This document shows positions 22,431 through 46,100 of a stretch of DNA of 64,000 nt, in pieces. The stretch's first letter is position 1. The number at the start of each line of letters is the position of its first letter. The notes under the pieces were generated by a model. The model did no database searches, was not told the DNA's origin, and saw nothing but the letters and a program-made list of their open reading frames with translations. Both the position numbers and the translations under genes were made by a program. Source of the stretch: Lingula anatina (taxonomy: Eukaryota; Animalia; Brachiopoda); contig CM120645.1 of assembly GCA_051362555.1 (NCBI GenBank), positions 868,001 to 932,000 on the forward strand, written 5' to 3'.

Positions 22431-24308
<1,878 letters not shown>

Positions 24309-28954: not shown

Positions 28955-31900
28955 CTATAGATTGGTGCTCAACAGTTTATGCAAAGCTTTACTGTTTGGT
29001 GCCATGTGGGCCGCGGGGGAGATCTTAAACCGTTCCAAGATGGCCTTCAGCTGCGGCTCAACATCTCCCAACAGAGGGCGCTTGTTCTGGTCACCTGCCC
29101 AACACGCTTGCATCAGTTCCCAGCATTCCTCATCAAAATGGGGGAGCTTTTCTGGGCGCATGCCTGAAATGAGATGGTATGGAGGTGATTTATTATCATC
29201 AAATGAAAATTAATTAACAAAATACATATTATCTGGTCTTGAGGGACATCACACAGTTCTTCCTAACACTCACAGAAGTTTATTTTCATTGACACGCTAC
29301 AGCAGAAATAATCACCATCAGAACAATCAATAGTCGTTTTTCATAATTTGAGCAGAAAATGACACTTTTGTTTTCATGAGTATTAATGAGAAATGCTTTC
29401 CAATAACTCTAAAAGCAATTTACATTGCTTAATGGCCCCAAACTAAAAAGCGAACAGTTCATAAAATGGCCACAAAAAGTGGAAAGAAACAGGCATTTAT
29501 CTACCATCAATTGTGGGTTATTGCAACATCAAAGGGTAATCAATCACCATGAGGTGACATCATTTTGACTTTCCCTTCTCCTTCTCTTTCATATAGGTAA
29601 ACGTAATATGATGTCAAACTATTCTCCATACATACTATTAAATATGGCTTCACAAAGCAACAGTCATTCATTCATTCATTCATTCATTCATTCATTCATT
29701 TATTTATTCAGTCATCCATTGGTTTATTTATTTATTTATGAAACAACCAAATGCTCTACCATACCTTTCGTACAAATGAAAACGTGTGTCAAGAAATTTT
29801 ACTTTGACCGTTACCATGACTCTCCCTTTAATCTGAACAGTAAAGTTCCTGTTCTATTATTAATAGCAAAATGTAAACTGTCTGTAAAGTTTTAAGTAAT
29901 CTAAGACGGAAAAATAATTTGATACCTAATGTAATCTGAATACAGCAATCATAACAAAGCAAAATTCCTATCAGGGCACCAAGGAAATAAGAAATAGTGT
30001 GACTTGATTCATAACTCTTACCTAAAAAAATTTAGAAAAAAAAAAAAAAGATGAAATATTAAAAGGAAAATAATAAAAGGAAAAAGTAGGTCTTGGATAC
30101 ATAAGCCACTGATCTGACCTTTGCTGTAAATAAAACTTGGCAGGAACTAGGAAATTACTGTCAACACTCAAAGATAGCCCTAAGTTTGGCAACTTGGTGT
30201 AAAATGAAGCGAGATTTCAAGGGATTTACACCCCATTTCCATAGATTAGATCGACCTACTTTAGATCGACCTAACTCCCTGGGGGTTCACGCTAAATAGC
30301 TGTCAGCCGGGCGGACAGGAAAGTTAATTAGCCCCTTACAGCTTGAAGTTTGCGGGACGGACATTTAAGTCGGATTATCTGAAAGTAATCTAGTGAGACT
30401 CCCCACGGGGATAGATCGATCTAAAATCTATGGGAATAGAGCCTTAGAGCAGTATGAGGCCAGCAAAAATGGCTGACTAGAGTGTGGTGCAGCAAGAAAT
30501 AAAAGCTGACAGAACTTTTCCACAGGCAGTTTCCTGTTTGTTTTCTCTTTTGTTGTTAATTGCATTTATCAGGTTTTGCATCTTTTATTTTATTTTGCTT
30601 TTTAAAGACAATATTCATGGTGTAAACAGTTTCACCCTTATTGCTTAAAAGTTAACCCCACCTCAAGCGAAATCTCGCACATTTTCTAATCTCTTATGAC
30701 ATCACACAGAGTTGACAGCCTCGTTTTGAGACCATCTCGGATGATTTCCAGTGTCCCTCAGACCACTGGCTAACCTCACACTGACACTGTAAACCACTTC
30801 AACCATAAAAACACCCATGAAATGAGTGATGGCACTGGATGCCACATATTGTGTGTTGTTACCACTGAACCTATTTACTCATCTCAAATGTCTTTATAGA
30901 TAACGGGAATGATGTAAATAAGACTCCTGATTGGTCAACAGCAGTCTTACAAGGAAGGAATGAGCTAGGTACCATAAGCTAATTGATCATAGATGAAAAG
31001 ACTGTGTGATCCAAATACCTTCAGAGGAATTTTACATTAAACTTCAGCCTTCACATATGAATAAGTTAGACAAAATATTAAGTGTCGAAAAGAAGGAAAG
31101 TGTAAGAAAAACAATATAATTGGTTTTCTAAAGGCTATAAATCAGGATTTTAAAAATGGATAAAAACAGCTACAAGGATATGTTGACATGAATACCCTCA
31201 TTTAATCATATCCATCTATTAAAAAAGGGGTCTTAATAACAGGCTAACTTGTAAACATATATCAAACTGTTTTGCGACATAAGAGCACTTTCGAAACCAG
31301 ATCACTAAGCTGAGCTGATTGGTTGATACAAAAAAGAAGGAAGATAACATAAATCTATAAATACCTATCCAAATTGCTACTCCAGTAAATATTATGATTC
31401 ATTTTCAAAGTACATAAGCACTTCAACTCTATCCTACTGACACCTTTTATCAGTCAGAAGTGATAACCACTAAAAGATTTCAACGGATCTTTGTCTGTAA
31501 TCAGAGAGAGCGGCCCAGTATAGCAGCGTTGAGGAGATAAGAAGCAACACAACTTTGTCTGCACACAGTTCTGGGGGCCATTTTGCATATTGGATGATGG
31601 TCATCTATTGGTCATCTTGAAATTAGTGATCAATATATATTATAGAATATAATACAAAACAGAATAGCTGAAGATAACCTAGAGAGTTTGACATTGAACA
31701 TGTAAGTACAAGGTACAAATAGCAGGGGGCAAATACCAGTCAGATTATTGATCAGTAACATAATAAGATTGTTAATCTGTCATCAGTTTTTCTGTTATTA
31801 AAGGGATAATAACTCTTCGTTTCGGCCAAAAAATGAATTTTCCTGAAGTAAACAACAATTTTCCCATACTCACCAATGGTTAATGAATCCATTTTTACAT

Positions 31901-34014
31901 TCAAAGTAAGTCCCTGGTTTTTTTTCTAAAAAGTTAATTTTTTTGTTAAAATCTCTTAAGAGATTTTAACAGAGTATAGCCATCAATGGAGGTCACGTGG
32001 TCTGAAGACAAGCTCAGATATCAGAATAATAGCTATAGCTGCCATTTTTGTGTTAAAACAGTATATATTATATTTCTATGAGTTATTCACAAATGTTTTA
32101 ATGTGCAATATAGATCTCATACGAAAAGTTATTATCCCTTTAAGCAATATTTTAGTTAAACATTTTGTAAATAAATATCTTTTGTATATTGAAGAATAGT
32201 TTTAAAAGCAGATCCTATTTTTATTTTTTCACTCCAATACTGATTTCATAACAAAATAGGTATTTAGGGTTTGTAAAATGTTTGTTTTACAAGGTCTACC
32301 CTAACTAACAATACACTGTTTTTCTCCCCAGGAGTATCACTATGAAATGTTCTCTGCTACTGCTGGTCATAGTCTGTACTCTACTGTCTCATACCACAGG
32401 GAAACCAAACCCAAAGTGTACCTATAAACCTGATGGTGACAACCAGTTGTCCATAGATGTCACCTGCAAGAACCTTGACCTTCCCAGGGGAGTCCAGTTA
32501 AGAGAAGTCCTGGGCGAGGTGGACATCGCTCACCTCACTGTCACTCACTCCAACATCCAGCTCCTATCAGCAGATCTGTTCACAAAACTGGCAACCACCT
32601 TGGAAACACTTACAATAAGACACTGTGCAGACCTTACCACCATTGAAAATAACACATTTGTTGAGTTTGGTGCCTTAAAATCTCTCGACTTGTCAAAGAA
32701 TAACATCAGTATCACCCTGGATGGGGAAGAATTCCGCAGCCTGAAAAACTCGCCATTAGAGTCAATTGACCTCAGCGGGAATGCCATCTCGCTTCTTCCA
32801 TCTCAAATGTTCCGTGGTTTGAATGCTTTAGAAAATATCGATTTGTCCAATAGTAAAATATCACAGATACAAGACACAGTGTTTGATCACCTTATCAACC
32901 TAAAATCACTCGACCTGTCACACAACCAGATTGCACAAGTTGGCACCAACATCAACGGTTTCCCTTTTAGCTGGAACCAGCGCCTGCAACTCCTAGACCT
33001 CTCCTACAACAAGATGGCGGCTGTGCAAGTTGGTATTTCCATCCAGCAAAGCCTGACCACTCTAAACCTCAGCCACAATGAAATATCCAGCTTCAATCGC
33101 AAACCGTTTACTGTTCCACCAATGTTACAGCCGTTACAGTTCATGGACAACCTCAAGGACCTCGACCTGTCCCATAACAATCTTACCGACCTTCCTCTGG
33201 ATATTTTCTATCAGCCAGTAAATACGTTGTTTGTAAAAGACTTTGGGATATCATCTACAAGCAAAGTGGCAGTCAATCTGGCTGGGAACCCATTGCACTG
33301 TGACTGTGGATTTTATACATTTTGGGAATTTCTGCAAAGTGCAGAATGTCGACTGAAATTCAGCTTTAAGAATGGTGTTTGTGATCAGCCAATGGGAGTG
33401 AAGGGTGTAAAAGCAGCAGCAGTTGACATGACTCATTGCGCACCAAAAACAGGACAGTCCGTCAAAGTGAACTAAAAACTTTTTATAACTATGTTTTGCC
33501 TGAAGGCCCGTTAGATCATATCAGGTTCTGAGCTTATAGTTAGTAACAGAAGATTTTATGTACAAAGAATAAGCACATCACGAGAGATCTCACTGAGGCA
33601 AAATCATATCTGCTGCTTGTAATTTTATGTACACAGAGCTTTATATTTAAATGAAATAAGACTTTTAGCAAAATCTGCAAATCTCACCAAACAGGTGAAT
33701 TGTCTGTTAAAAGAGGGAAAAATCACAGAAAACATGTATTAAAAGTTTATCAATTCAGAGTATATAAAAAGATTACAATATAACTTTAAAAATTTAGTGA
33801 AATATTTGAGCAAAATAAAATAGTTTAAATCACAAAACCCTTTTTTTCTGTTTGTTATACCTTCAATTATACACTTAATGTTGCATTGTCCATCAATTAT
33901 GTTAAACACTGGTCCCCCCACCATAAAAAAAGATTAGAGTGAAAGACCAATTTGTTTCCTCATAAATTCCACTATTATGAATTTTACATGGAATCTTCCA
34001 TCTATTTCACTTAA

Positions 34015-34106
<92 letters not shown>

Positions 34107-37100
34107 AAGACTTTTTCTTTTCCATTTTTTAAAATAAACCAGGGGGCAGCGCCCTTATCCTTTTCATCACCCCACCTCTGGTAACACTCCCATGTAGCCA
34201 CTCAAACACATGATGATACCAGGAAATAGGACTGGCTCCCATTCAGCCAGCTCTCACAGAGCACTACAACCATGGACAATGTCAGAGTTATTGGATAACA
34301 ACCTGGAGATCAGAAATCATAATCTGTATGTTTAGGGATAGGCTGAGGTGGGGTGGGGGATAGGGAAGTCATGCCTGTACATGGGTAAAATCTTTACCTC
34401 TCTCTCTCTCTCTATACACAAACAAGCAGATGTAGGGACCATTCCCACATGTATTTGAATCGGTCTAACTCCCTGGGGAGTCTCACTAAATTTCTATTAA
34501 TTTAACTGGCTTAAATGTTTATCACGCCTAGTAAAACTGTTAGGGGGTAATTATCTTTACCCACTAGCCGATTAGGTAGGCGTGACAGACATTTAAGCTG
34601 GTATGTTGACAGCAATTTGGTGAGACTCCCCAGGGAGTTATAGCGATCCAGATGGATCGATCTAGGCATGGGAACCCAGTCATATACATACAAATCCCCA
34701 AACACATCACAATTTTTTTCATGTAAAACGAGGAGCTACATCACTAATCTTTTAAGCACACAGACATGATGTTACAGGTCTTAGTTTTGTAATCATTATC
34801 TGCTGGTGGCTTTATCTGAATAAGTAGAGTTACACAATTTCTATTTACCTTCTTGGATATGTATAAGGAAATATAAAATAGGGATCTGGGATACAGAGTG
34901 ATTACAGGGGCGGATTGAGGCCGTCTTCTAGGTCTTCCGGAAGACAGTCAGATTTTCAAGTTTACATTGATGGGTATCTGATTTTATATGTTGGAAGTCA
35001 AAAATGGAGGATGGATCAACAAAGATAATTTGGAAGACTGTCAAAAAATATCTGTGAATCCACACCTGTGATTGTATCTCCCCCCCCCCCCCCCCCGGCA
35101 CACCCTTCTCCAGGTACTATCTCCTAAAAAAAAAAAATTCCTTGTGGCAAATCATAAATGGACCTGTATCTTTTTAATAGCATTGTAATTACTTCCTTGT
35201 AGACATCATGAAGATTTAAATGTCTTCTGAAACAAACCATCTATTCATTTTAAATTTTAAAGGAAGATATCAGGAAAGTGAATATTTCATATATGATGAA
35301 ATTCTCTGATGGATCCTTATACTGGATATCAGAGGCCCAGCTGGCCTTGTCATGGAAAACAAACAAACAACAAATAACAACTAACAAGTAACAACTAACA
35401 TTTCATAATATTTGTCTGAGAAAAACTGATTCCAAAATAAATTAATAAATTAATGAAATGAAAAAGTTGTCCCAAACTATATAAGTGGGCTGCATTATCT
35501 CATGCAGACATTTGTAAAATGAATCACTATTTGCTAATACAAATACTAATCAATAACAACACACATCAGAAGAACTCTACACTACAGCTTGGCGCAATTC
35601 TAACAAAAGCTGTACAGTTCTCCAGGCACATCCCAACCAAGCCTGAGACATAAATTAGCAGAATATTAAGATTTTAACCTGCCTCCACTGCTACCTATAT
35701 TCTGTGAAAGTACATTAACACCAAGCACTTCAAATCAGGATATTAACCTGGCTAATTAGTATTTTTCCGTCACTTTAACATCGTTATCTCTTTTCAGACT
35801 GGCATTTTCTGCAATCAACAAACGTGGAAACGAACACACCTCTTTCCTGATACTAACAGATCAATTAAACCAAGGGGAATTCTTATTCTGTCCTTTATTT
35901 TTTACTTCTGTTTTTACATCACTTTATTTTAACCACACGGCACTGTTATCATAGCAACTTTTAGTTTATCTTTGACAATCTGATATTTTTTTTTACATTT
36001 TGGATTAAATTGGTTCTCTAAATCAACATTTCTGGTGTCTGAATCATCGTTACAGGATCTAGCTCTATCAGACTGAGCTGAACAACTGAACTGGTAAGCA
36101 GTGTATTTTACTTTAGTTTATACTTTCTTATTTCATCACCAAAAAGGCTTTTGTAAGAACGTCATAATGGGATGGATTTTTTTGTCACTGTAGTACACAA
36201 AAATCATTAGATTTTCACTTTGTAATAATTATAGTGATATATTTCTTATATAAAGCTCTTTAAACTACTATCTAATATCAACATACAGGAGTAGAAGGTC
36301 AATTTTCATATTGGCGCTGACTGCTTTACTGGGTTATTAATCACAGAGAGCAAGAACAATTACAACAAACGGAACTGAATGTCAAGACAGAGTAGAGTAT
36401 TGTAAACAAGTGAAGAGGGCGCTGTGCTGACCACAGCCAGGTAGTCCAAACAGGAAACAATCTTTATACTGGCTTAACATGCACTAGGTAGGCAGAACAT
36501 TACCAACTGTTAGAGACATTGGGGTTAAAGTAAGGAGATGTGCTACTTGAGTATAGACGGGCTTAGGATCCCGCTGACTAGGAATTACTGGTACATGAGG
36601 AATAATTATACAAGAGAAACCAGGTTTCAGTCAATATAGTCTAATAGTGAGTATTCAGAGGTTGAATAGTTCAAGAAGTTCAGACAAGTGACTAGGATGA
36701 ATTTGTTTAGAAAAGAAAAAACTTTGGGTGGAAAGTTTTTAACAAAAATTCTGTCTTGTAATTAGTTTGATAAAAAAAGTGCAAGGAGCACAAAGAAACT
36801 GAAAAGAAGAGAAAAAGTTAAAAGATATATATAAAATCTATTATTAGAAGTTGCCCTTCCGGAACAGGTCAACACTCCTTACAGGAAAATGAATACATTC
36901 GGTACAACTTAACTGCCATCACAACAAAGCATAACTGTACACAGCTAACAATATAGCTGTTTCGACTGCGTGTCTAAAAACTGTTACAGTTAAAAGTTGC
37001 TGTCTCATAGCATGCCTTCAGGTCATCAGTTATTTTCCATAAAACATATATAAATATTATGTAGACTTTTCAAGAGAGTGAGAGAGAGAGAGTGTGTGTG

Positions 37101-40100
37101 TGTGTGTGTTAATTTGTGCATACATCCTAAGGCTTCCATATATCACTGTCATGCCAGATAATAATAATATAACACAGAATATAAATATAAAAGAAACCAA
37201 CCAAAGTAAAAAGTAAAACATTGAAAGCAACTGCCACAGGTACTTAATGACCTACTAAGCTAAGTGATGCATATATATACCTACTAGTATAGCTATTTAC
37301 AAGATGATTTGCCTACTCTATGCCATATAAAAGAGTCAAAGTTTTTAAAGGACAAAAGCAGTTACTACAGGTATTGTAACAGTTACTACAGGTATTGTAA
37401 CAGTCAGTAATAACTGGAGTACCATCCTGTTATCTGTACCTGGATATCCTGTTGTTGGACATCCTGTTGTTGGACATCCGGTTCTTATCTCTCCTTGTGT
37501 AATAATTATATCAATCCAGACTACTGTCTTTACTGAAGAAGGCTGGGCCAGAAGTTAGGCCATAGTTTGGGCTACAATTTTGTTCCAAATTTTGGGGCTA
37601 AAATAACTCGATCTGTGAGATCGACCTACCCATGCAGTAAGGCATAAGGTGAGTAAAATATCAGAATGCATGGGCATCAGATCTTTTAAGACAAGTTGTT
37701 TGCCGCATCATTTTTATAAAGAGGAAAAGTTTTTTTGTATGATAAAGTAGGTATTGACGTGTTGAAATATATGACAGGAGGCGGGTGACTTAAGCCACAC
37801 AAGGAGATGGCAACACACTTGAGACCTAAACCGGTTCAGGTTTATCTTCCGTGTCTAAACACACCTTTAGCGAGAGGAAACAATGACAAGAATTTAGCTG
37901 TAAGGTGAGGGTACAGTAGTGCCAAGACCACAATGTAGACATTTCAAGACCAAAGCAGTCACCCTGAACTTCTATGTGGAAGTCATTATAGTGCTAATAT
38001 ATGTCACCTTGATTTATTTAAAACTATATATTACTCATTTGTACGCATGGTTTCAAAACTGGGTGAAAACCAAGGGGTTTGGGCTTGTCCTTTTATATTG
38101 TGGGTGAGTTTTCTATTGGCCGGGTCAAAAACCACAATGTTTTGATAAAATAGTCCACAGAATGGGTGGGTGAAAGCAATCCCTAGTGTTGTGTTAATGT
38201 CAGTCATAAGACAGCAGGGTGGAAACAGAGAGAGAGAGAAAAATGATTGTTGTGATAAACAATGAGGTGAGTGAAGAGCATATTGCACTTGCTATATAAC
38301 ATATCTTAATTGTACTTAAGTTTTTTGCCATATCATTTTCTCTGAAGGTAAAAAGGATTATTTATGTCTCCTCCATCCCAGTGTACCCCAAATTTTCATA
38401 GTCCCATGCATAACAAGAGAGAAGGGAACAAAGAATATCGATTGTTCAAGATTTGGCCAAACAAGGTTGCTTTTATTATATAACCCCATTTGTTTGATGA
38501 AGCTAGGTGGGTGTTTAATTGCTGGTTAAAATATATCAGTGAAAGAAAGCAAACATTATTTTACAATTAAGAGCTTTTACGTTTACACTCTTCTGTATAT
38601 ATTCACGTTAGTTTTTTACACAACCATACATCCATCTACAACCCAATTTAGGTCAACTTCCATCAATTTCCTCCATCCATCAATTGTAGTGTGTAAAGAG
38701 TGTGAAGTGGTTTCCTAAGCCATCAACTATACATATCTGCAGTAAATGGTGCTACGTGTTGACATTATTGCTCATAAGGAGACAGAAAATCACTTTTTTC
38801 TTAAACCTTTTTTATTGCTCTGGATTAGACCTGACTTCATGCACCATATGGCACCCGGGGCCTATTCAACTCAAATACCTAAGGGCTCATTCCCAATGTA
38901 TTTACTGTATGTAGATCTAGCCAACTACACTGGGACTCTCGTTGAATAAAATCAGACCAACAATTTAACATTCCTCCCAACATTGAATAAAATACAGAAA
39001 AGCTGGTAATTATTACGAGTATGTTTGAGACAAGAGGAGGCGTGCAAATCTGTTATCTGACTGCATTGTTTTCAACTTGTCACTTAAAGACTGACACCCT
39101 TTTATAATTTTTCTTCAGACTTGTCCAGCATTTTAAATTCTAATTTCCTGGTGAGGGCTTATCAGTCATCCCTTAACCCTCGCCTACCTAATTACTTGTA
39201 ACCTAATAAAAAGAAATAAAGAGACATTAAAAACAGGTTTATTAAACTGAAAAACTTTTTGAAATTTGAAATTCTCTTAAAACCAGCTATCATAATAGGC
39301 CATAATGGATATGGCCAAGGTGGGCTATACCAAAATAAATCAACTCCAATTTTAGTGGAAACACGTCTTTAGCAGAGTGCTTGCATCATCCAGAAATGCT
39401 GTGATGGTTTTTTACCATTCAGTGCAAGTTTACCTCCGTATCTTAGAGTTTCCTTACCATTTATTGACAGTGTTTGTACACATCCATATCTTTTACATTG
39501 TGATTACATTGTAATTCATGTTTTATCCTTTTCTATATTCACTGGTAAGTACTATGCATAAAATGGAAATCGAGGATTTTTTTTTCTTCTTTTTATACTC
39601 CTTAGTGCTATAAAATTTTATAATCTATTTCAGACAGCCAGTTCTCTGGGGGGCTTTTGAGGACATCATACCACCAGATATTGTGGCAAGCAAATGACCG
39701 AGTAGTAAGAATTTGGCAACAGAACAGACAGACTCATGAGGGCCTGAAAAGGACGTCTGTTTGGCACTAGAGATATGCAAATTATCATTACTGAAAGCAG
39801 GAAGTCAGTTTATAAACATTCTAAAATGCATATGTTAAGACTATTAAGTGAGGCAACATGTGCTGAATACTACAAGACTCATTGGCATTTGAACCTGGAT
39901 ACTGTAACCAGTTTTCTCTCCCTTCCAGGAATGGTATATGGTGAGGTTCTGAGAGCTCTGATTGAAAGAAAACTGAGCTGCACAATTCTACTGCAAATTT
40001 AAAGACACTGGAACTTTATAAGCAAACTGCATATAAACATAACACACCCAGAAATGAGTTCTATCATTCCCATTGCTGTGATAGCTGTATTCCTGCTGCT

Positions 40101-43100
40101 GAAAATACAATCTTGTGCTGGAGTATCCCATGTAAGTGACAACTGTCCCGCTGGCTGTGAGTGCACAGGTGTTGAGAAAACGGGATGGATAAACCAACTG
40201 AGCTGTGCAAAGCTCAATATTTTCAACGCCTCTATACAAGACAACAGAATACTACAGGTCGACTGCAGAAAATCACAAAATTTCCATTTTTTCGGAGATA
40301 TGTTTCAGCCTTACGTTTCCACGCTGGTTCCCCTCGTGTCAGGTTTGCACTTGAAGTTTTGCTCACTTCGAGGCATCGCACCAGAAGCTTTGTTTTCTTC
40401 ATTGCAGACACTAATTCTTGAGGCAATTTCAGATACTGAACTTCAAGATGGAATTCTTGACGAATTAAGTCAGTTAAACCTGGAAGCTGTTGAAATAAGG
40501 AGAACTAGACTCCAAAGTTTAACAAGAAGACTTCTTCGAGGCCTTAAACAGGTCAAATCACTGACTGTTTCTGGGAACCCTCAGTTGACATCAGTTCAGG
40601 ATCACTTTCTTGAAGGATTTTACAGCCTTTCCTCACTAAGCCTCACAGACAATGCCCTTGTTTCCATAACCAATCATACCTTGAGCGGACTCCGTAACCT
40701 GCACATTCTTGACCTCAGCTGGAATCGTCTTCGGACAATACCAGGTGGCATTTTCAGAAATCTCACCAGCTTGACACGAGTAGACCTCAGTCACAACTTT
40801 CTCAGTAAAATTGAGGATGGTACATTTGAATATCGAATCGACTTACTACGTCTGGACCTCAGCCATAATTTGCTGGCCAAAGTGGGTGATAAAGAAGAGC
40901 ATCCATTTGCCTGGAATCAGTTCCTGACGTACTTGGATCTGTCATATAACAAATACCAACGAATCCAGAGTGGTATCTCCTATTTACAATCGCTCCAGTA
41001 CCTTGATCTATCCCATAATTCCATTAGTGGGTTGGAGCTCGGATTCCAAGATTCCACCAGTGGAATGTGGGTCGGTAATGCACTAGAAAACATGCCAAGT
41101 TTGCACACGCTGAAACTTTCTCACAACCAGATGCCTTCCATAGACTTCGCCTTCTTTCACAGACTGGTGGACCTTCCGCCTGCCCTTGAAGACTTTGATC
41201 CAGACTTTGCTATAGGTCCGTCCAAGGGGCATGTTCTTACTATATACATAGGCAACAACCCTATGCACTGTGACTGCCTTCTCTATGATTTCCTGAGTTT
41301 TATCCAAAAAAACAGTCACGCTAATGATAATCTGAGGTTCTATTACGAAAACAGCTTAAAGTGTCACGGTCCTCCTTCTCTAAATGGTACGGACCTTGCT
41401 GCAGTGGACGCCAAAAATCTGGTTTGTCCTGTCAGTGATGGAAATACTGCTTGCAGCACCATCTATAGGAGATATGATGATGCAACGATCACAAACTGCT
41501 CGTGGCAGGGTCTCATTCACATGTCTCAGAAAATTGACCAGAACACGACCATTCTGGATGTCAGTAATAACTATCTGGAGACCATCCCTGACATGTCTGA
41601 GACAATGTACAGAGAAGTTTATCTGGATAATAACTCTATTTCTACTTTCCCTACCTCACAGGTACTTCCACACAACTTGACTACACTATCTCTGAGATAC
41701 AATTCCATTCAGACCATTTCCACCAGACAAACTGAGAAAGATTTGATGCTGAATGATCTTTATCTCGGTGGGAACCCTTGGCACTGTGACTGCTCTGCAA
41801 AAGGTATCAAACACTGGCTTTTGAACAATTCCAATATCATCAAAGACCTTGACGACATCACGTGTGTTTCAGGTGAGCCAGGAACTCTGGGAAAATCAAT
41901 AAAAAATGTCCCAGATAACAATTTTGGCTGCCCCATCGAAAAGGCAGATATTGCTGCCATTGTTGGAGGTCTCGTTGGCAGTTTTGTGGTCATCATCGCC
42001 TGTATGCTTCTTCTCTACAAATGCAATCTCAAGGTCAGAATATGGCTATACTACAAATTTCGTTTTCGATTTTTCTCCAAATCAGATAAACAAGATTCTG
42101 ACAAAATCTACGATGCTTTCATTTCGTACAGCAGCCTGGATGAGAAATATGTCGTGCAAACTCTTGTGCCTGGGCTGGAAAATCAAACTCCGCCTTTCAA
42201 AGTCTGCGTCCACTACAAACATTTCATCCCAGGCGCGTCTATTGCAGAATCTATCGTGGAGGCTGTAGAGAACAGCAAGCGTACAATCATGCTTCTTTCT
42301 CAGAACTTCATCCACAGTGAGTGGTGCACTTACGAGTTTAAGACGGCCCACCATCAAGTTTTGAAAGACCGCAGCAACCATCTTATTGTGGTTGTATTGG
42401 GTGATATTCCCAGTGACCTTGACTCTGACCTTAAACTTTATCTGTCTACAAACACATACCTGAGAGCAGACGACAGCTGGTTTTGGGAAAAACTATTGTA
42501 CGCCATGCCAAAATTAGAAAATGGTCGAGAGAGACATGGACATGGACACAACCATGAACACTGCCCAGCCTCCCCCGGGGGAACTCCCGACACACCTTTC
42601 ATTACATTGCAATCATCAAATTCAGCAGACATCACTTCATCAGAACAACTGCTGTCAACCAATCAGCAACAATCATCGCAATCTGAAGGTGTTTCATCTT
42701 GTGCAGAATCAGCACCTGCCATCACAGACCTGTCTTCAGAGCTCAGAGAGATTTCCCCATGCTGATGTGATTATATCAACTCGTACCAAATTCATAACAA
42801 ATTTACTTTTCTCATATCATTCAAATTAAACTTTATATCAATTTATTTCCATTCAGACATTCCTCAATCTGTTACAATACAGATATCATTCAATATTTTC
42901 AGATAAGCAGATCTACATATTTTACTTAGAGAAGTAGTTTTGTAGAAGTTGTATAATTTTGTTTGAAAAAATGGTGGGTCAATAAACTCAGTTATTAATA
43001 TGTATCTCAATATGTTAGTTTTCTATGGATTCTGTCTTACAGTCACACATTATAAAATTAGAGACTTGTTTTTCTATATGCATACACATCATTCAGACTG

Positions 43101-46100
43101 TCACCTGATAACCAATGTTGTCACCAATCTCAAATCTTGCAGAGTGCATTTGTTGTCACGTGGTATTACCTGAAACTCATATGTTCAACGAAACTTAAAC
43201 ATAACGTAAAAACTGTCCCCAAGACAAGCCTGCTAGTGCTGCCACCTACCTTTCTTCACAGACATCCACAGCTGGTCCTTACTCGTACACTGCTCAAATG
43301 CAAACGGCAGTCGGACATGTCCCGCACAGACGTACCAGAACAAGATCCCAAAGGCGTAGACATCCACACTGTTATCGTACCTCCCACTGAAGAGTTCAGG
43401 CGCCATGTGGATAGGCGTTCCTACGATACTTCCACTCATCATAGCCTCAGGTTTACAGAAACCCAGGTCTGTGATTTTACCTCGATTCTGTTTGTCCATC
43501 TGAAATAAAGGCCACAATTAGATAACAGCACTTGTATATAAGCCAAAAGGTTGGTATTACTTGACACCAGCCTACAATACATGTTCCTAGGGATAAAATA
43601 TAATTTACTGCACCACTTAGATAGGGTAGAACTTGGTGATAAAGGTTAGTTGGCAGAAACATCTATAATTTCTATTTTTACTTTATTAAGGTCTAACATG
43701 CATTTTATCCCTTTATTTCTTTCTTGGTGTCTAATTGTGTTAGGTGAGATAAGATGTCTTACCAGCACATTCTTCAGTTTGATGTCTCTGTGGACAAGTC
43801 CCTGACTGTGGAGAAACCTCATCCCTTCTACAACATCTATGGCTACCTGTAACCTGAAACACAAAATCATTGTAATAATTTATTATCTGTGGAGAAACCT
43901 CATCCCTTCTACAACATCTATAGCTACCTGTAGCCTGAAACACAATATCATTGTAATAATTTATTATCTGTGGAGAAACCTCATCCCTTCTACTACATCT
44001 ACGGCTACCTGTAACCTGAAACACAATATCTTTATAACATTACTGTCTTAATGACTGTTATATATTGTAATGGCCAAGTAACATCCTAACAAGTGTTAAA
44101 AGGAACAACCGATATCCATCCTGTATCCATAATACCCATACCCATCCTTCCCATCATACTCATATCCATCATATTCACCATACTCATACTGACATACACA
44201 TCATACCTATACCAAACCATATCCACAAACCTATACCCACATATCCATCAAATCATACCTATTAATTCCAATCATACCTATACCAACCACACCCATCATC
44301 CCCACATCCCCTTACCTGCTCTGCCAGTCCAGTCCAGTCTTAATGGCAGCATACAGATCTCTGTGCATTCTATCCATAATGAGGTAGACAGCGGGAGAGG
44401 AGCCCCCGCCATAACTGTAGTCAATCACTGAGCCACGTAAACCGGCTACACGAGGGTGCTCTGGGACATTTCTGTGGACAAAAAAAAATAAATGAAAATA
44501 AAAAAAATAAGATCATGATTTCTCTACATCAGGTTTTTTCTTTAATTTCTTCTCTTCTTAAATTTATCTTATTTATCTATTTTTCATTTATTTATTTTTT
44601 CAATCTTGCTTTTTCTAAGTATCTGTATCTTGGCAGTAACACACCTACTCAAAACTGCTCCATAATTTTTTCCATAATAATAACAACAACAATATGTAAA
44701 TCCTACTTTGTATAGAAAAACTCCAGCGCCAGATCATTCCAGTGTTTCTCGTCAGGTGGCACCACTGACTTGATGGCACAGTTGTGGATTCCGGCCCAGT
44801 TCTCGCAGGAGTACACCACACCATACTGACCTCGGCCAATCTCACGACCTAGCTGAGGCATGCCTGGAATGATAGGATGTGGATATTGTCACGCTTATAT
44901 ATAATATTTAACGAGAAAGACTCCAAGACTCATGTTTGGGGTTCTAAATGGCCATCATATCAATATAGGTACACTTTTATTATCATCTGATTTGCCAATA
45001 TTACACAACCATAAATAAACTGATCATGACGTAATGAACATGACAGATATGAAGTAGAGATGTTAAAAAGATGTGAAAACTTTCATGTCTGTCATCATGT
45101 ATATCATAATTGCATGTTCCTATAGACATTACCCAAAGATCAATGTTTTGAAACATTCTGGATTTGTTAGTCTGAGTTTTAAATATCCATATGTGCCAGC
45201 TTATCATACATTCTTGTCAGCAGAATCTAACTGATGTTTTAAAATTATCTATGTTACAAGGTTCTTATAACTTCCTCACATGGCTTTCTTTGTAACCACA
45301 AAATCTAGATGACTAAATCTTTGTTTCTGATTGGTGCTGATAAGATGCACAGATGGAGATTAGAAAATGAAGCTAAGGATAGAATACACACCTGCCTTAA
45401 ACTCACCAAATGAGATAAAATCCTTCATTGATATACTTTCAAGGGCTAGTTTAGCAACTTTTGGAGCGTGGATCTTCCTCACTTTCAGTCGCTGTTCCTC
45501 TGTCTTCTCCAGTCTCCCAGAATGCTTTGCTTCAAGCTGTTTAAGGGCAGCAGAGAACTGCTCGTGGGAGTTCTTGAGCCGCTCCTTGAATTGTGCACAG
45601 ATGCTTTTGGCAAGTCTGAAATAAAGTGAATTTTTTTCATGTTAATAAGTGCCATAAAAATAAAACATTCATATAAAATGATAAATGTTCATAATAAGAT
45701 CACAGCATGTTACTTGTTGGTTTAGCAGTTGTAAAAAATTTAAGTAATGGCCCCTTTACACTGGACGGCTTCCTTTCTGCGTCCAGCAGTACGGCCCCAT
45801 TTGAGAGTTAAAAATTTTTAATACTTTACTTGGCGACAACTGGCCGATCATTGAGCATTCATTCTGATACAAAATCAATGCTCTTGCCTCCTTATTTAGA
45901 CCACAGTGATGCCAAATTTCATGGTCGCAGTAAGGACGTAGAGAGGACGCCGTCCAGTGTAAAGGGGGTAAAACTATATTTGCTTTGAGTGTCACAACTA
46001 TGTTACTCTGATAGTTTTCATCAATTTAAAATTGACATTTTGTTTCCTTTTTCAACTACTTTGCTGATCAGACCACAAAATTCAGTATTTATCTTCCTAT

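Follow-up and report, generated by a model that had tools for sequence, protein, structure and literature searches.

A putative soluble paralog of the outer LRR module of the Toll receptor Lan-TLRalpha2, encoded beside it in Lingula anatina

Introduction

RP105/CD180 is a TIR-less relative of the TLRs that modulates TLR signaling; it retains a TM segment and acts together with MD-1. The teleost TLR5S is a different arrangement, being a separate gene that was duplicated from a membrane TLR and has neither TM segment nor TIR domain (PMC12816324, PMC9857387). It derives from a vertebrate single-cluster TLR, has flagellin as its ligand, and has a demonstrated amplifying effect, in that it amplifies TLR5M signaling in teleosts (PMC9857387). 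Gene-encoded soluble TLR5 has been reported from teleosts and lamprey, and a 2026 study failed to find a convincing case in Ciona (PMC12816324). For insect Tolls, excerpts on Aedes Toll5A describe a ligand bound on the concave side of the first LRRs, with the dimer contacts made by later LRRs together with the hinge (PMC9427763).

In the brachiopod Lingula anatina, Lan-TLRalpha2 is listed as a P-type, clade alpha multiple-cysteine-cluster (mcc) TLR in supplementary file 3 of Orus-Alcalde et al. (PMC8609888). That survey counted only proteins combining LRR, TM, and TIR and set "LRR-only" proteins aside, and no mention of a short neighbor of Lan-TLRalpha2 was found in its excerpted text. A literature search found no description of the gene pair considered here; Gerdol et al. 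(2018), on Lingula immunity, may mention it, and in the excerpted part of PMC4199593 soluble TLR appears only in a reference title.

Here, a 64,000-nucleotide stretch of L. anatina DNA (GCA_051362555.1, contig CM120645.1, positions 868,001 to 932,000; hereafter, the window) was analyzed. It followed an original prediction, made from the sequence alone, that a Toll receptor in the window is paired with a secreted copy of its own N-terminal ectodomain module, as a candidate decoy or co-receptor.

Gene models at the locus

Two LRR genes lie in tandem on the + strand with 6.6 kb between them; their positions and orientation are those originally given, and the protein segments quoted in support of their likeness are present in the translations. 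The downstream gene is a single 903-aa ORF (40054..42765, +) comprising an LRR ectodomain, one TM segment, and a TIR domain (Pfam LRR_8 and TIR; hydropathy). An N-terminal LRR module (~40123-41427, +) is followed by a second LRR module (~41452-41931, +), the TM segment (~41956-42024, +; a hydrophobic stretch near aa 635-657), and the TIR domain (from 42109, +; Pfam). Its two cysteine clusters, Cys406/408/437/458 and Cys578/580/604/626, place it among the mccTLRs, and 868 of its 903 residues are identical to those of the RefSeq L. anatina "protein toll." By sequence, the ORF is an allele of Lan-TLRalpha2 as entered in the PMC8609888 supplement.

The upstream gene begins with a first exon (31403..31701, +, start approximate) that holds the 5′ UTR and the AT of a split start codon; it is delimited by RNA depth in runs X4 and X7 and by the joint 31701>32332, and the start of a molecule at 31402-31403 is seen in X7. 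A GT-AG intron of 630 bp (31702..32331, +), defined by joint reads, separates it from the coding part of exon 2 (32332..33475, +; ORF and RNA), which encodes an LRR protein free of TM and TIR. The 3′ UTR (33476..33810, +) has a depth of 130-144 in X4, where the molecule ends at 33810 and depth is ~0 past 33897. A multi-copy element lies inside the intron, at ~31798-32144. The predicted protein length of 377 aa is correct from the second ATG (32342), but splicing supplies an in-frame upstream ATG, split by the intron, and the mRNA thus encodes 381 aa, as does RefSeq XP_013412991.1.

This short protein consists of LRRs, a hydrophobic N-terminus, and a four-cysteine LRRCT cap (Cys320, 322, 347, and 366; 33284..33439, +). 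A signal peptide is predicted at ~aa 1-20 (32342..32401, +), where hydrophobic windows exceed 1.5 and the structural model has a helix at residues 2-18. The ORF stops 11 residues past the last LRRCT cysteine, bearing out the clean C-terminal boundary that had been proposed. There is no TM segment, TIR domain, or GPI-type tail; a hydropathy scan found no hydrophobic window beyond the N-terminus, the highest 19-aa value near the C-terminus being 0.39. These features suggest that the protein is secreted. Of the two analogs that the original prediction had named, TLR5S is apt and RP105 poor; the RP105/CD180 type, which requires a TM anchor, was rejected as a model for a protein that has none.

An AlphaFold model of the short protein is an LRR solenoid (mean pLDDT 71, pTM 0.75; last 35 residues of low confidence). 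Foldseek with this model returned Toll structures at ranks 4-6 and generic LRR proteins also among the top matches; neither it nor PDB sequence searches, whose matches are generic LRR proteins, can separate Toll from other LRR proteins.

The two LRR genes lie within a GT-AG intron of 14,086 bp (29164..43249, minus strand) belonging to a protein kinase gene. Loose RNA read ends at 43249 (four reads in X1 and three in X3) match 29135-29162, and the flanking kinase exons, joined in frame, match consecutive parts of PF07714 (profile 137-199 and 216-257). Read-end joins and consecutive profile matches together indicate that the short gene and the TLR are both antisense inside one kinase intron. The analysis itself identifies the host gene only as a kinase; we take it to resemble DSTYK.

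Expression, variation, and selection

Four of nine listed RNA runs were read (X1, X3, X4, and X7), from three studies; X4 is stranded, and X7 reads are divergent, mostly 90-95% alike to the window. Reads were aligned to each gene separately, such that a joint between the genes would appear only as loose ends, and the joints, loose ends, and variants considered are the best-supported ones. The joint 31701>32332 is carried by 88 reads in X4, and the equivalent joint by 229 in X7. The short gene is a gene in its own right, having a first exon, a splice joint, and a 3′ terminus of its own, and its abundant spliced mRNA in X4 and X7 disposes of the concern that the ORF might be untranscribed. No splice joint of the TLR is among the joints listed, at low TLR read depth.

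Mean CDS depth was 248 for the short gene and 5.8 for the TLR in X4 (ratio 43), and 330 and 11, respectively, in X7 (ratio 30). In X1 and X3, depth on each strand was under 2 for the short gene, and in the TLR region it did not exceed ~4, mostly antisense; the nesting in the kinase intron probably accounts for such antisense reads. Thus, across these four runs, both genes are read in X4 and X7 and are near background in X1 and X3. Splicing of the short ORF onto TM/TIR exons had been named as an outcome that would contradict the original prediction; since TIR-region depth in X4 is as low as 7-13, against ~248 for the short CDS, a joined isoform can make up at most ~5% of X4 transcripts.

The 25 X7 differences listed for the short CDS divide into 11 synonymous and 14 nonsynonymous ones, giving a dN/dS of 0.37-0.56. 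These values lie below the figure near 1 that would have told against a maintained gene, with p from 0.015 to 0.11 depending on the assumed transition bias, which makes them weak evidence. For the TLR, 34 differences (19 synonymous, 15 not) give a dN/dS of 0.23-0.34. One base is missing at 32656 in 44 of 304 X7 reads, possibly a frameshifted allele or copy. Between the window and RefSeq, 31 of 609 residues differ in the TLR ectodomain, none of 193 in TM plus TIR, and 3 of 377 in the short protein; the disparity between the TLR ectodomain and the short protein argues against tight co-evolution of the two.

These data bear on a skeptical account, largely refuted and in our view highly improbable, in which the short ORF belongs to a duplicate in decay, is one exon of some longer transcript, or results from misassembly. 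This account finds some encouragement in the dN/dS test (p up to 0.11), in the minor 1-base deletion in X7, and in the fact that joints and loose ends were drawn from the best 15 of 43 and the best 24 of 843. Against it stand the occurrence of the same protein in RefSeq, where its contig and that of the TLR are both given as 344,705 bases long, an abundant spliced mRNA with its own 3′ end, and a same-length relative, P0004, at 41% identity. The proposal of an old partial paralog kept intact is supported, with the gene transcribed and its ORF stopping shortly past a four-cysteine LRRCT.

Relationship of the short protein to the TLR

BLASTP aligned aa 57-362 of the short protein with aa 138-452 of the TLR (108/320 identities, 34%; E 2e-46), at 157 bits versus at most 92.8 among 336 other LRR proteins (mean 68.7, sd 8.2). 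Identity at non-consensus positions over the whole HSP gave a z of only 0.9, and a fixed-window test was added because the whole-HSP test compares local matches of unequal length. Against the 336 LRR proteins, the fixed-window score reached z 8.6 for aa 187-251, 7.6 for aa 187-366, and 4.8 for aa 264-366, compared with 1.9 for aa 57-186, where non-consensus identity had z -1.0. Judged by these scores, specific kinship is confined to the C-terminal half, from the PF[S/A]WNQ block to the LRRCT, and the N-terminal half resembles the TLR no more than generic LRRs do. The likeness beyond the LRR consensus that the original prediction had cited is thus specific in aa 187-366 but not in aa 57-186. 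The description of the short protein as a copy of the TLR N-terminal module fits the 34% match over 320 aa, except that ~80 residues following the TLR N-cap are absent from it.

In the C-terminal half (aa 186-368), identity to the TLR is 41%, versus 34% overall. A family-specific block at aa 187-251 (32900..33094, +), with its PF[S/A]WNQ insertion, is common to the short protein, the TLR, and P0004. All six family sequences carry the motif PF.WN, which is absent from the 467 other stored proteins; across the 25 Lingula TLR rows, of which the first ~360 residues each were visible, PFAWN is confined to Lan-TLRalpha2. At the DNA level, comparison of the two genes left only short chance-like matches, the best of 31 bp.

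Two trees were built, neither of which included the near-identical alleles P0003, P0243, and P0244. The whole-module tree (39 rows) did not recover the family group, which would require three changes, with two long-branch intruders and a careful search that was incomplete. In the tree of the irregular half (26 rows, quick method), the TLR joined the short protein and P0004 as TLR + (short, P0004), with SH-aLRT values of 84 and 93. The possibility that the short protein groups with unrelated LRR proteins is thus countered by the irregular-half clade (SH-aLRT 84), although not by the whole-module tree. Of the proteins sampled, the one most closely related to the short protein is the ectodomain of a membrane TLR. 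It is likely, from these comparisons, that the short gene is a paralog of the TLR outer LRR module that arose by an old, local, partial duplication; nesting of both genes in one kinase intron would fit a local duplication at the nested site.

RefSeq automatically names the 99% identical XP_013412991.1 "phospholipase A2 inhibitor." LRR-type phospholipase A2 inhibitors and LRG1-like proteins resemble the short protein in size, signal peptide, and LRR solenoid; the name appears to reflect this generic LRR likeness, and the specific kinship detected is with the TLR. The short protein might nonetheless be an independent secreted pattern-recognition, opsonin, or matrix LRR protein, its adjacency to the TLR recording origin only. 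Its identity to the TLR of only 34% and its generic N-terminal half would suit such a protein, as would an RNA depth 30-43-fold above that of the TLR and the differing polymorphism levels of the two genes; its nearest Atlas clusters, which serve as leads only, consist of secreted LRR proteins of a generic kind, among them "leucine rich immune protein (coil-less)." A tie to the receptor is suggested, however, by the irregular C-terminal block and the LRRCT held in common with the TLR, and by the runs in which the two genes are read, or stay near background, being the same (n=4), and we consider full independence possible but somewhat doubtful.

Distribution of the family and direction of the duplication

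P0004 is a protein of 382 aa that is 41% identical to the short protein (E 6e-56) and scores 358 against it, compared with 262 for the TLR. It has a hydrophobic N-terminus, a TLR-like CPxxCxC N-cap, the PF[S/A]WNQ motif, and four LRRCT cysteines, and its C-terminal end point is that of the short protein. P0004 is likely an ortholog of the short protein in another species, and the short form is therefore probably old.

A profile search of 1.84 billion representatives yielded no further family member above ~101 bits, with long repeat proteins crowding the best 150 matches and relatives below about that score liable to escape. Rescoring by the single best stretch placed the six family sequences, by construction, at 288-327 bits, and the protein that came next at 65. 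An ortholog of TLRalpha2 in other species, which could root the tree, was not found in this search. Word-index searches for longer relatives yielded chaoptin-like and other generic LRR proteins; the insensitivity of one of them is evident from the absence of the Lingula TLR itself from its best 120.

This distribution bears on the direction of the duplication, for which we tentatively favor a passage from the TLR to the short form. In the reversed order, a secreted LRR gene would have been duplicated and its copy would have replaced the N-terminal module of a Toll, giving rise to TLRalpha2, a course of events compatible with any function of the short protein. The short form is indeed present in two records and the TLR form in one species only, and the motif was found in no other TLR among the rows searched. 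Because the mcc layout is ancient and widespread (PMC8609888, as excerpted), truncation is the simpler path, and with searches crowded by long repeat proteins the absence of the TLR form elsewhere is not demonstrable; the reversed order is accordingly judged unlikely.

Discussion

The short gene is best explained as a separately encoded, soluble Toll ectodomain that is predicted to be secreted. Like TLR5S, it would be a putative soluble receptor, but its counterpart is the first module alone of a multiple-cysteine-cluster Toll, to which it is 34% identical. In terms of Drosophila Toll and Aedes Toll5A, the short protein corresponds to the first module of an mcc Toll, although the insect module is longer and binds Spaetzle.

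Functionally, the short protein may capture a ligand and hand it over to the membrane-bound Lan-TLRalpha2, or it may form a pair with that receptor. We assign a probability of roughly 0.4 to this ligand-catching partnership, in view of the amplification of signaling by teleost TLR5S together with the better-kept late half of the short protein. By position only, that C-terminal half would correspond to the part of Toll5A, late LRRs plus hinge, through which the receptor makes its dimer contacts. A late half that was kept while the early half drifted argues mildly against a decoy for the same ligand and in favor of a partner whose receptor-facing surface has been retained. Whether the ligand itself is shared is doubtful, because the N-terminal LRRs are generic and ~80 TLR residues are missing.

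A decoy would act differently, the excess secreted form soaking up the TLR ligand or blocking receptor dimers and thereby damping signaling. The large mRNA excess over the TLR and the want of TM and TIR are what such a role would call for; PMC12816324 lists soluble or decoy TLRs with a modulating effect on vertebrate responses, and the surface through which Toll5A receptors contact each other overlaps with the ligand site (PMC9427763). A decoy would, however, be expected to conserve its ligand face, whereas conservation here is weaker in the N-terminal half, and TLR5S, the known separately encoded case, amplifies (PMC9857387). We consider damping an improbable role for the short protein.

If the partner reading applies, a two-component Toll may have evolved independently in an invertebrate: an mccTLR that is scarce in the membrane, and a separately encoded, abundant soluble version of its first module, which would capture ligand and deliver it to the receptor or pair with the receptor. 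The two would have been kept in tandem in a kinase intron, with the soluble form already in place before Lingula and the source of P0004 diverged. This wider scenario is put forward tentatively and with considerable doubt.

Gene-encoded soluble TLRs are known in kind; what is new here is the derivation from an invertebrate multiple-cysteine-cluster Toll. In this invertebrate case, relatedness in sequence, gene linkage, and expression all stand behind the proposed soluble TLR. The case also bears on how ligands reach spiralian Tolls, no Spaetzle ortholog having been detected in the nemertean Lineus (PMC9835746). An abundant soluble paralog would be a handy bait for the ligand of such a Toll, and it would allow a direct test of decoy versus co-receptor function.

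Genomic context of the LRR genes

The LRR protein gene without TM or TIR (the short gene, +) and the Toll-like receptor gene Lan-TLRalpha2 (TLR, +) are both nested antisense inside a 14-kb intron (29164-43249, -) of a protein kinase gene, the remaining exons of which appear to extend to at least ~56600 in the window. The host gene appears DSTYK-like. Elsewhere in the window, an F-BAR (FCH) exon (343-591, -) and a PF14976 exon (23274-23366, +) lie on opposite strands. In vertebrates, SRGAP2 and FAM72 form a similar divergent pair, located near DSTYK on human 1q32. This likeness hints at an old microsynteny. A 58-bp unit is repeated in six tandem copies at 23366-23715, the array starting where the PF14976 coding exon ends.

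Two multi-copy elements, one at 30226-30437 and the other within the intron of the short gene (31798-32144), show deep RNA coverage and numerous loose ends in all four RNA-seq runs. RNA reads also contain opposite-strand joints at both elements, suggestive of terminal inverted repeats in each.

Sequence variation at the locus

Run X7 carries the same species label, and most of its reads over 29750-43500 match the window at only 90-95%, which suggests that they come from a divergent population or a cryptic species. A one-base deletion at position 32656 is carried by 44 of 304 reads of this run, and an in-frame insertion of CTG at position 32353 by 176 of 298; these variants may represent alleles or a second copy in the X7 population.

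The window TLR (40054-42765) differs from the RefSeq allele ('protein toll') at 35 residues: namely, 31 in the ectodomain, four in the tail, and none in the TM or TIR. These differences are concentrated at aa 150-174 and 553-609, a clustering that could stem from balancing or diversifying selection.
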